In this document: positions 47,882 through 51,795 of the stretch, piece after piece | How positions within the stretch are numbered: position 1 is the first letter of the stretch | Layout of the letters: every line of letters starts with the position of its first letter | NCBI GenBank assembly: GCA_029717555.1 | Contig: JAMDHS010000002.1 | Coordinates: 124,001 to 188,000 of the forward strand | Direction: 5' to 3' | Length of the DNA stretch: 64,000 bases | DNA from: Peribolospora baueri | Taxonomy: Eukaryota | Notes under the pieces: generated by a model | Seen by the model: the letters and a program-made list of their open reading frames with translations, nothing else | The model's database searches: none | What the model was told of the DNA's origin: nothing | Made by a program: the position numbers and the translations under genes

Positions 47882-50800
47882 ATGAGTTACAAACCCAAAT
47901 TGCTGAACACTTTCCTACTTCTTCTTGCCGGACTGGGCGTACAGCTCGGCCGAGCTCTTCCCAGCCCGAACCAGCTCGAAGAGATCAGACCTGCCGCATT
48001 CTTTGATCCTCGCGCCCACCTTCCCACGAACAATATCGCCAACACGACCTCTTCTCCCCAGCTCCAATTGACGCTCGTCAATTCGACGACGAAATGGCAA
48101 ACTGTCGACGGTAAGGACGCCCAACAGATCCTCGTCTGGATCAACAACACCTTCCCAAGCGTCGCCAGCGATGGATCCGATTCCAGCGGCTGGATCACTG
48201 AGCCGTACACTGTATGGATCGAATCGGATGCCGTCACGACGGTGCAAGCTCCAACGATTCAGCGGTTGCGACCGGGTGATCAAGTACGTCGGTCTCGCAG
48301 TCTCGAGGTACACACGAGCGGAATTGGCGACGACAGCTCTCACGTTTTCGCTTTTTCTGCTCTTTGTCCTGCCCACCGAATGGCAGGCCCGCGTCCAAGT
48401 CGGCGTTACGAACAAGCTGAATGTGATCCCCGGAACCCTGACCAACGGCACCGTGACGGTCAAGGACCCCCTCGGCAAAGTCGTCTTCTCCAACTCCACC
48501 AGTCTCATCGCCGGCATTCCCGAGTACAAGGACACAAACTCCAGCCTCTCTACTCACCAGGCTCCTGATTGGGTGAGTCCTCGAGTGCTGCCACCTGCAA
48601 ATAACAGGATGCAAATACATGGAACGACGTGTCATCGATATGTTTCGACGTTTTCGCTTGTCGCAGTGGGACGGTGCAAAGCTAGGCATCTTCGTACACT
48701 GGGGAGTCTACTGTGAGCGCTCTATTACGACCGCTCGTTCTCCTCCCTCATTGCTAACAAGTCCCTCCCCCTTTAGCCGTTCCTGCATGGTCGCCGTCCG
48801 GGAAGCAGGTATGTAGCGTTGCTTCGTTGACGTCTTTGGAGAAACGAGTTTCACAGTTGCCTTGTTCGGTCTCTTATAACAGTATGCCGAATGGTATGTG
48901 TCAGGGATTTTGCGCACACTTTTGAAGAGGTCTAAATGGGTTTCAGTTCGACCTTACCGGCCCTTCCCTGACGCAGGTGTAAGTCCTCAGTCGAAGTTGA
49001 GATGCACACAGGCGCCGCTAATCTCTTCACTCAATCTTGCCCAAATTCTTAGATTGGGTGAGTGAGAGCTCGTACACAATTTCAAGTACCGTGGGAACCC
49101 ATCTGTTAACACATGATATTGGCTTGGTTTTGAAATAGTACCAACAACATGTACCCAGGTAAGCAGTGACCGACCTTTCCGGTAGACGTTAAGTCTGACG
49201 TCCGAATGCCTAACCCGACGCACCGTACAGCAATGCTTCTTCATGGACCTGGACTTACCATAAAGAGACGGTGAGCATGTTCTACCGTACGAGGCCGTTT
49301 CGGAGCAGCTTCTGTGCGCTGACCTGGCTTCCATGACGAAAATGAAATAGTACGGTGAGCTGTCTCCTTGCAGGTTTCCTCTCAACCGATGAGAACGTGG
49401 CCTGAATCCTCTCATGTTCCATCTTTTTGATCAAGGCGAGAACTTTACGTACGACGACTTCATACCTCAATGGAACACCGACACCTTCAACGCCAGCGAG
49501 CTCCTCAGCACTATCGCGGGATCGGGTTCCAAATACTTTGTCATCGTGACGGTACGCACAAGTTTGTTGGCCTCGGCGTTTTGCCGGTTTTATGCTCGTC
49601 ATCCGTTTCCTGACGTGAGCCTCTTTCCCTTGCTTTGCTGGACTGCTTTAAGAAACACCATGACGGCTTCGCTCTGTTCGACACCAAGAATTCGAGCAAC
49701 AGGAACTCGCTCAAATATGGCCCCAAGTGCGTCCATTCACCCCTTCTCCTCTTCTCTACCCGTCTATCTTCTTTTCCTGCCTTTGCCCCGCTTCCATATT
49801 GACCTCCTGGTCCCTCTACTGCCGGCAATTGTTTTGTTTGCAGGAGGGATCTGGTCGCGGAGATCTTTGCCGCGGCACAGAAGGAGTATCCGGAACTGCA
49901 TCGAGGAGTATGTCGCTTTTTTTTTTTCAGGAACTTTGTCGAAACACCGGAGGCAAGGTCGATCTCACCTTTTCGTCGTGTAACCCTTGCAGACCTACTA
50001 CTCTCTCCCTGAGTGGTGAGAGCGCTCGCCAAGCACAGACTTTGCCGTCGCACCCGTCTCAGCTCACGCTCTCGTTCTTCTCTTTCAGGTACTCTCCCGC
50101 CTACAAGCCTTACGGCTTTATTAGCGAACCGGTGCACACCATCGCCCCCGGTCTCATGAGCGGTTCCGGCTGGCCGGGCGGATATGCTCCTCATGCCTAC
50201 TTCCCAAATCAAACAGAGGGGTATCTTGGTGAGTCAATCTGCCCAGTGCGCTACCCAACTGTATTGTGGAAAACCGCCTCATCATCCGTTCCTTGAACTC
50301 TCAATTTCCGACATCTCTCCTGCAGGCTATGTGGAGGTTGACGACTACTTGACCGATATTATGAAGCCGCACATGGAAACGCTCATGTATGACGAGCGGT
50401 ACCAGACGGAGGTCTTGTGGTGAGCTGGCCAGCGCGAAAATTCAGCGAATGAACTTTCTCAGCGATGACCTCACACCTCGCTTTCACTGTCATCTGTCGC
50501 CCGTCCTTCAGGTGCGACATCGGAGGCGCTACGATCTACGGAGACATTGCTGCCGATTGGTACAACTGGGCCAAAAACCAGTCGAGAGCGGTCACGGTAA
50601 ACAACCGATGTGGCGTTCCCTACAGCGACTACAAGTTGAGTTGATATTCGGCTCGATTTGCCCTGCCTGGCGTTCTAGCGCACGATGAACCTTATACTTG
50701 CACCTTCCCTGCCTTCTCTGCTTGACTACTCAGCACGCCAGAGTACGAGACGCTTAGCTATACCCAGCCGACGCCCTGGGAGAGCACCGAGGGCGCTGAT

Positions 50801-51795
50801 CCTTTCTCTTTTGGATACAATCGGTGCGCTGTTGAGGCAGGTCCTCCATCCGTTCGAGCTTTTGCTCACACAAGCTACTTGTTGCATGATGTAGGAACAC
50901 AACACCTTCCGGCTATCAGAATGCTTCGGTCATCATCCCCAAATTTGTAGAGTGCGTATGATGACCTGCTGTCCCGTCGTGAGCTCTCACCATGCTGACT
51001 CCATGACAAATCGTTGGCCATTTTGGTGAATAGCATCGTGTCCAAGAGTGGGTCTTCTTTATCATCACAACCATAGAACGTTTCGTCTAGTGCCTCGCTT
51101 CCTCCTCATTTGGTTTGCCGTTCTTGTTGCCCTTCATTCCTTTCCGACTATGTTTGCCTGCAGATGGCAACTATCTGCTAGATATTGGTGAGCAGTTTTG
51201 GCTCTCTCTCTATTCTTTTTTTGTAAAAGTGCCGGCTGGCGATTAATTTATCCTCTGCTTTCTTACGCCCTGCCCAACCAGGCCCTCACGCAAATGGCAC
51301 GGTTGTCGCTGAAGAAGTGACCCTCCTCCGTGACCTCGGCACATGGCTCTCCCACTCCGGTGAAGCCATCTACAACTCCTCCTACTGGGGTCCGACGTCT
51401 GAGGACGCGAACCTGCGCTTCACCACCCAGCCAGACGCGTTTTACATCACCTCGCTCGTTCAGCCAGGAGCAACTTTGACCACGAGCATGCCGGTGAGCG
51501 GGGCCGGCGATGGATGCTTCATCGATCAGCTCCGGATCGTGTGGTCCCTTGTTACGTGACGCTGTCATTGACCGCTTCATTGCTTCCAATTCGTACCTCC
51601 TCTGTACCAACACTTACCATCCGATGGAACTAGATCCCCATCCTCAAGGGCGACAAAGTGACCATGCTCGGCGGCACGGGCAAGCCACTGGACTGGTCCA
51701 TGAACGGTGGCAACCTCACCATCTCGGTCGATGTAGAAGAGGTGAAGAAAGTCCAGTGGGCTTGGACTTTCAAGGTCGCTTACGCCCAGGCGTAG
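47882..51795 (+). CDS. Secreted GH29 alpha-L-fucosidase (about 22 introns by manual count)
   Basis: Signal peptide, [52 protein letters not shown], nucleophile LWCDIG, VNNRCG, WESTEG.DPFSFGYN, IVSKNGNYLLDIGP and WLSHSGEAIY. Confidence 0.93.

Follow-up and report, generated by a model that had tools for sequence, protein, structure and literature searches.

Exons of 1–3 nucleotides (nt) are already in print for both basidiomycetes (PMC12230235) and ascomycetes (PMC12940212). In Coprinopsis cinerea, long-read complementary DNA (cDNA) yielded 57 exons of 2 nt, spread over 50 genes, as well as 13 exons of 1 nt in 13 genes, and 1,165 gene models contain an exon of 15 nt or less, the omission of which mostly leads to a premature stop (PMC12230235). 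The Fusarium P450 gene CYP621A is reported to contain a 1-nt exon that is conserved in 20 orthologues and covered by 18 SRA reads (PMC12940212). Small exons also occur in the cDNA-verified bglA gene of Rhodotorula minuta, where 10 of the 22 exons are shorter than 30 bp, a pattern called common in the genes of basidiomycetous yeasts (PMC9142197), and in the P450 genes of Phanerochaete, with exons down to 6 bp (PMC1184071); the 1-nt exons of the Arabidopsis genes APC11 and VPS55, validated by reverse transcription PCR (RT-PCR) and reporters, are conserved across species (PMC4674806, PMC8831610). Here we describe a comparable arrangement in a 64,000-nt stretch of the Peribolospora baueri genome (GenBank assembly GCA_029717555.1, contig JAMDHS010000002.1, positions 124,001–188,000; hereafter the window, to the forward strand of which all coordinates refer unless noted). 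A gene for a GH29 alpha-L-fucosidase (47882–51795) appears to contain a chain of six consecutive exons of 11, 2, 5, 20, 40, and 4 nt, the second of which is just the dinucleotide GT. With a probability of roughly 90%, we interpret it as a constitutive chain of real microexons in an intact, single-copy fucosidase gene of a basidiomycete.

As in Coprinopsis, the GT exon is an internal 2-nt exon in a basidiomycete coding gene; the Coprinopsis exons are based on cDNA, whereas the fucosidase exon is recognized by homology and splice signals. As in CYP621A, the tiny exon lies within a conserved motif; the Fusarium exon was found through a phase mismatch, an over-long apparent intron, and a homologue of fixed length and, unlike the fucosidase chain, it is isolated, consists of one base, and is backed by reads. 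The bglA and Phanerochaete P450 genes are intron-dense enzyme genes too, but their smallest exons measure 5–6 bp and the families are GH1 and P450. The 1-nt exons of Arabidopsis are likewise constitutive and too small for exon definition, with intron definition and sequential removal being favored, but these are plant genes. Fungal stwintrons, defined by an internal intron that interrupts a splice signal of the external one and by an obligatory inside-out order of removal (PMC6616335), also comprise neighboring short introns that are not removable at the same moment; unlike in stwintrons, the splice signals of the fucosidase chain are neither interrupted nor rebuilt, either intron can leave first, and two bases of exon remain in the product. 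The chain is a densely packed case of a gene organization known from mushroom-type fungi rather than a new splicing mode and, because fungal 1-nt and 2-nt exons have already been described, it leaves the known minimum of exon size unchanged. If real, it would provide a compact natural test piece, with three exons no longer than 5 nt inside 380 bp, each required for the same part of the active site, which would be suited to asking about the limits of spliceosome packing in fungi and the order in which neighboring introns are removed.

The six exons have the coordinates assigned to them in the original prediction, an earlier reading of the window, and each is flanked by AG and GT. Intron 4 (48809–48882, 74 nt, donor GTATGT) leads into exon 5 (48883–48893, 11 nt), which encodes Tyr-Ala-Glu and two bases of a Trp codon and is followed by intron 5 (48894–48976, 83 nt, donor GTATGT). 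Exon 6 (48977–48978), the GT dinucleotide, completes this Trp codon with its G and opens the following Tyr codon with its T; intron 6 (48979–49052, 74 nt, donor GTAAGT) has a branch-like CTAAT 32 nt before its end and an AG-free zone of 39 nt. Exon 7 (49053–49057, 5 nt) finishes the Tyr codon and encodes a second Trp, and the donor of intron 7 (49058–49138, 81 nt), GTGAGT, scores highest among 76 sites. The chain continues with exon 8 (49139–49158, 20 nt), intron 8 (49159–49230, 72 nt, donor GTAAGC), exon 9 (49231–49270, 40 nt), intron 9 (49271–49350, 80 nt, donor GTGAGC), and exon 10 (49351–49354, 4 nt), which encodes Tyr and the first base of the Gly codon of the YG motif, and it closes with intron 10 (49355–49435, 81 nt, donor GTGAGC). 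The spacing is as regular as had been claimed (83, 74, 81, 72, and 80 nt between the six exons, with outer introns of 74 and 81 nt), and four exons of 11 nt or less fall within 472 bp.

Pfam matches and alignments with homologues bear out the identification of the gene as a GH29 fucosidase whose conserved motifs are restored by the chain. The YAEWY motif corresponds to residues 64–68 of the Thermotoga sequence (1hl8), and the E and W begun in exon 5 match Glu66 and Trp67; in the Thermotoga enzyme, Glu66 bonds O3 of fucose and Trp67 bonds O2 and O3 (PMC11796335, Table 10). Dropping any one of the six exons truncates the frame (225–285 amino acids (aa)). The 2-nt exon is required for more than the reading phase: when it is skipped, the codon formed across the junction is a stop and the frame ends after 225 aa. 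Retention of any one of the seven chain introns ends the frame at 235–314 aa. The exons do not behave as regulated, switch-type alternative microexons, given that single skips truncate the protein and that each of the 13 further combinations of the six exons that stay in frame loses conserved residues. The transcript would be made and spliced by this path, and inclusion would be constitutive, since with one exon skipped or one intron retained the enzyme ends ahead of its catalytic residues.

The complete model joins 23 exons into 646 codons and a stop, with zero internal stops and zero frameshifts, and is supported by the open frame, Pfam, and homologues. All 22 introns are GT-AG and are 64–140 nt long. 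The exon lengths are 402, 186, 46, 32, 11, 2, 5, 20, 40, 4, 116, and 74 nt (exons 1–12) and 64, 23, 140, 94, 123, 90, 57, 14, 24, 212, and 162 nt (exons 13–23); 8 of the 21 internal exons do not exceed 24 nt, those outside the chain being exon 14 (49993–50015, 23 nt), exon 20 (51034–51047, 14 nt), and exon 21 (51164–51187, 24 nt). When nine exons were scanned singly, three produced matches to fucosidase-family Pfam domains, PF01120 (E 2.5e-08) and PF16757 (E 6.5e-06); the former match is to exon 11 (49436–49551, 116 nt) and covers positions 78–115 of the domain. The whole model scores 613 bits against a hidden Markov model (HMM) of 121 homologues. Its closest homologues are basidiomycete GH29 proteins, with about 50% identity; those from Agaricomycetes and Atractiella (P0145, P0144, P0146, and P0148) show 46–50% identity over some 600 aligned residues, the same YAEWYWY sequence, and the same domain order. 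The encoded protein is, by these sequence comparisons, a GH29 alpha-L-fucosidase with a PF01120 catalytic domain and a PF16757 C-terminal domain; it contains 17 N-glycosylation sequons and probably carries a signal peptide, judged by eye, and is secreted. Homologues of 790 aa carry an extra first domain that the model lacks, as do homologues of 590–650 aa.

A decayed or mis-spliced gene, of which the chain would be a leftover, is hardly credible. An atypical donor elsewhere in the gene (GTTGAG at 50635, score −0.8) would fit such decay, but the frame runs through 646 codons without a stop or shift, the G at donor position +5 is present in 21 of the 22 introns, and the HWG, KHHDGF, WCD, and PEY motifs are intact and align with those of homologues. 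The fucose-binding His, Glu-Trp, His-His, and Tyr and the nucleophile Asp are all present in the alignments of the model with P0145 and of P0145 with 1hl8 (residue roles follow PMC11796335, Table 10; the acid/base Glu is assigned by likeness only). The gene is also single-copy: all nine matches of P0145 in the genome and the sole DNA match fall within this locus.

Splice signals, which decide between the model and the competing paths, were scored with donor and acceptor matrices trained on the 15 other introns of the gene. All seven chain donors rank within the top 9 of the 76 GT/GC sites; at every chain acceptor, the preceding 24–50 nt are free of any other AG, and introns 6–9 contain a YTRAY motif 18–33 nt upstream of the acceptor. 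At 72–83 nt, the chain introns lie inside the 64–140 nt range of the other 15. The 2-nt exon has the hallmarks of an ultra-short microexon, namely, the AG-GT-GTAAGT context, flanking introns of normal length (83 and 74 nt), and a need for the two bases in both the frame and the motif. The case for the chain is made because frame, motif, and intron lengths jointly demand it; the GT-exon motif alone is common enough to mislead.

The path through the chain was compared with all stop-free, in-frame GT-AG paths from the donor at 48809 to the acceptor at 49436 (introns of at least 45 nt), of which there are 1,103,177, using a scoring profile built from 63 homologous segments. The path of the original prediction ranks first, with a score of 79.7 against 72.0 for the next, which also holds the 2-nt exon, and 69.9 for the third. 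The chain region aligns with P0145 without gaps, YAEWYWY is exact in 19 of the 30 closest homologues, and 25 of these 30 have the same 27-residue spacing to the YDDF motif as the model. The second Trp occurs in 119 of the 121 proteins of the first homologue set, which is mostly ascomycete.

Several points weigh against this interpretation. The evidence for the 2-nt exon and for the chain as a whole consists here of homology and splice signals. The 63 profile segments were picked for the spacing of the model and the HMM homologues were ranked against the model, so that the scoring is biased towards it, and the path list below first place is pruned and approximate. The 15 introns used for training the matrices come from the same unvalidated gene model; the acceptor matrix places only four of the seven chain acceptors in the top 14 of 35, and the branch-like motif of intron 5, CTGAC, lies only 6 nt before the end of the intron, which makes the branch site of this intron uncertain. 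A metagenome scan with a 16-protein alignment produced 80 loci, 78 of them in one or two matched pieces, and none of the 80 showed an intron-like break-up. Finally, the second Trp is not invariant (W in 157 of 223 homologues), and because of this the protein evidence barely separates the model from one competing path: an HMM built from the 60 closest homologues gives the model 850.2 bits and path C 847.7 bits, a difference of 2.5 bits, followed by path D (donor at 48900) with 843.3 bits and path B, the alternative that the original prediction had named as its refutation, with 841.1 bits; path B is not in the path list and was scored separately.

Paths B and C dispense with the 2-nt exon by extending exon 5 to 48897 and using a donor GTGTCA at 48898; path B joins this donor to 49139, at the cost of one residue, whereas path C goes via a 3-nt exon (49069–49071) and replaces the second Trp with Leu. 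Both are stop-free and in frame and retain the fucose-binding Glu and Trp; path C trails the model by only 2.5 bits and path B by 9.1 bits, and the second Trp is variable in the family. We nevertheless consider this weak-donor alternative very unlikely. The donor at 48898 has a score of −1.9, which puts it 36th among the 76 sites, and path C additionally needs a donor at 49072 with a score of 0.1 (rank 25), compared with 6.4, 5.5, and 9.7 for the donors bypassed; the first introns of paths B and C would be 241 and 171 nt long, exceeding the other introns of the gene; and the 26-residue spacing to YDDF resulting from path B is found in none of the 30 closest homologues.

A different ambiguity concerns the exon rather than the protein. 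Intron 5 opens with GTAT, the very bases that the messenger RNA (mRNA) reads immediately after the junction, and the same mRNA would result from one 157-nt intron placed at 48896–49052 (AT..AG), 48897–49053 (TG..GA), or 48898–49054 (GT..AT); among the eight small exons tested, only this one shows such ambiguity of the product. Because intron 5 begins with GTAT, mature cDNA cannot prove the 2-nt exon, and the RT-PCR or cDNA junction that had been put forward as a check is not decisive. The claim that automated annotation would miss the feature holds for the exon, in place of which a false non-canonical intron could be drawn, but not for the protein, which RNA-based annotation could get right; as a more general caution for annotators, a GT-only exon after a GTAT-starting intron is invisible in mature RNA.

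That a single non-canonical intron is actually removed here (48896–49052 AT..AG or 48898–49054 GT..AT), with the inner AG-GT-GTAAGT being a chance occurrence, strikes us as exceedingly improbable. Such introns are on record, with 21 AT-AG and 18 GT-AT cases in an annotation of Ganoderma, but next to 89,855 GT-AG introns each class amounts to only about 0.02% (PMC11590231, Table 1). Furthermore, 157 nt is longer than any of the 22 model introns, both halves of the stretch resemble complete introns, and an acceptor followed by exactly GT and a consensus donor appeared in the usable part of the stretch in only 47 of 200,000 Markov resamples. By extension of the same reasoning, which is our own, some of the few non-canonical introns in fungal annotations may conceal exons of two bases.

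Each of the seven chain introns appears to be a complete short U2-type intron, with a consensus donor, an AG-free 3′ zone, and, mostly, a branch-like motif. Intron definition, as already proposed in the original prediction, still appears to be the best explanation: recognition would occur across each intron and, because the introns are recognized across themselves, exon length would be nearly irrelevant. Intron definition is considered to be implied by short introns in fungi, a statement made for ascomycetes (PMC6616335), and one-after-other removal has been argued for an Arabidopsis 1-nt exon (PMC4674806). Introns 5 and 6 would leave sequentially and in either order; once one of them is gone, the GT simply closes a 13-nt exon or opens a 7-nt one.

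The other part of the proposed mechanism, recursive splicing through a donor recreated by the first removal, is not supported. Enumeration of canonical excision routes over 48883–49057 yielded 3,144 (77 one-step, 969 two-step, and 2,098 three-step), only two of which produce the model mRNA; both remove 48894–48976 and 48979–49052 while keeping 48977–48978, and differ in order alone. Because both productive routes consist of two independent introns removed in either order, a stwintron is excluded. The junction recreated by the first removal (ATG-GTGTAA) does contain a GT, but it scores 2.4, compared with 5.5 for the donor two bases on, lacks the +5 G, and, if used, would delete the exon and lead to the stop after 225 aa, so that it is not a recursive splice site (ratchet point) either. 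With none of the 3,144 routes reaching the mRNA through a rebuilt signal, recursive or stwintron-like splicing, whether via the rebuilt GT donor or via one intron interrupting the signal of another, has a negligible chance of being the route taken here, and use of the rebuilt donor would be at most a minor error route.

An RNA hairpin is predicted over the 5-nt exon (49022–49067; −19.9 kcal/mol, z-score −3.6), in which the part of intron 6 that follows the branch-like site would pair with the acceptor of intron 6, the exon itself, and the donor of intron 7, leaving the branch-like adenosines of intron 6 bulged at the foot. Only 1 of 200 shuffled sequences was as stable. The first window folded was chosen after the stem had been noticed; among 130 windows along the gene, the hairpin window has the lowest z-score (−4.7; 4 of the 130 reach −2.5), and it is also the lowest of the 22 acceptor windows. 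The finding is weakened by the complementarity, by composition, of a pyrimidine tract beside a GTGAG donor. Of the eight exons of 24 nt or less, this is the only one with a strong hairpin, none being predicted at the other seven; neither the 241-nt stretch folded as a whole (z −0.89) nor the stem joining the two ends of intron 5 (z −0.66) is unusual. The predicted stability falls from −19.9 to −5.3 kcal/mol once intron 7 is removed. We regard the hairpin as a predicted structure and a lead; the bolder proposal, coupled to that of hidden two-base exons, that it gates the chain, masking the acceptor of intron 6, the 5-nt exon, and the donor of intron 7 together and thereby setting the order of intron removal or making enzyme output temperature-dependent, seems to us conceivable although rather unlikely.

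The P. baueri assembly (22.7 Mb, 668 contigs) was scanned for further 2-nt exons. The first pattern scan gave 51 matches, compared with 110 for a reversed-pattern control, and the pattern YAG-GT-GTRAGY gave 50 sites compared with 87, so that no genome-wide excess of 2-nt exons is shown by pattern, the control being a poor one. Twenty matches from each scan were inspected (20 of 51 and 20 of 50). In the first sample, one looks real (L093), three are false by eye (L082, L092, and L095), and 16 received no call; in the second, no call either way was made for any. L082 is a coding false positive; L092 (G000:C55:17132-17231, minus strand) is by eye a probable 12-nt exon of a peptide-transporter-like gene and L095 (G000:C659:51027-51125, minus strand) a probable 23-nt exon of an SNF2-like gene. 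The families of L082, L092, and L095 would be MSH2, PTR2, and SNF2, respectively.

L093 (G000:C132:190-284, minus strand) contains a probable second 2-nt exon, AC, in a zf-C6H2 finger gene, presumably akin to methionine aminopeptidase 1. The two bases keep the spacing to the last His of the finger, and without them the junction reads as a stop; the first exon matches PF15801 at E 0.0015, below the cut-off. A near-identical copy is located on a 634-nt contig (G000:C293:390-484). Three further putative 2-nt exons have an open frame on both sides: L098 (G000:C11:320333-320429, plus strand), L099 (G000:C572:117393-117493, minus strand), and L084 (G000:C85:3050-3132, plus strand).

Some minor features of the fucosidase gene deserve mention. 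The acceptors of exons 8 and 10 (49131–49141 and 49343–49353, plus strand) agree over 11 consecutive bases spanning the junction, and 48567–48578 duplicates 49052–49063 over 12 bases; these identities probably reflect chance plus splice consensus. No duplication that would explain the origin of the introns was detected in the repeat scan, which produced just eight short direct families of 10–13 nt. The atypical donor of intron 17 (50635–50640, plus strand) lacks the +5 G but would meet the consensus one base on (GT-T-GAGT), comparable to the shifted or bulged U1 registers known for human sites (PMC4856993); the other reading is an insertion in the assembly. GH29 proteins of bacterial type that have this N-terminal domain as well (P0001 and L002–L004) are 42–46% identical to the model, about as close as the ascomycete ones.

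No sugar-use cluster surrounds the fucosidase gene among the 107 frames of the window that were scanned with Pfam. For the ATP11 frame of the window, the nearest cluster has Basidiomycota as the commonest phylum. The neighboring genes (2946–62190) are housekeeping by Pfam and include those for VPS9, symplekin, thiamine-phosphate synthase/kinase, PPR, riboflavin synthase, ATP11, and C2H2 finger proteins, along with an amino-acid kinase with PUA, zinc alcohol dehydrogenase, BAR-SH3, TFIIA, clathrin adaptor, and an Alg9-like transferase.

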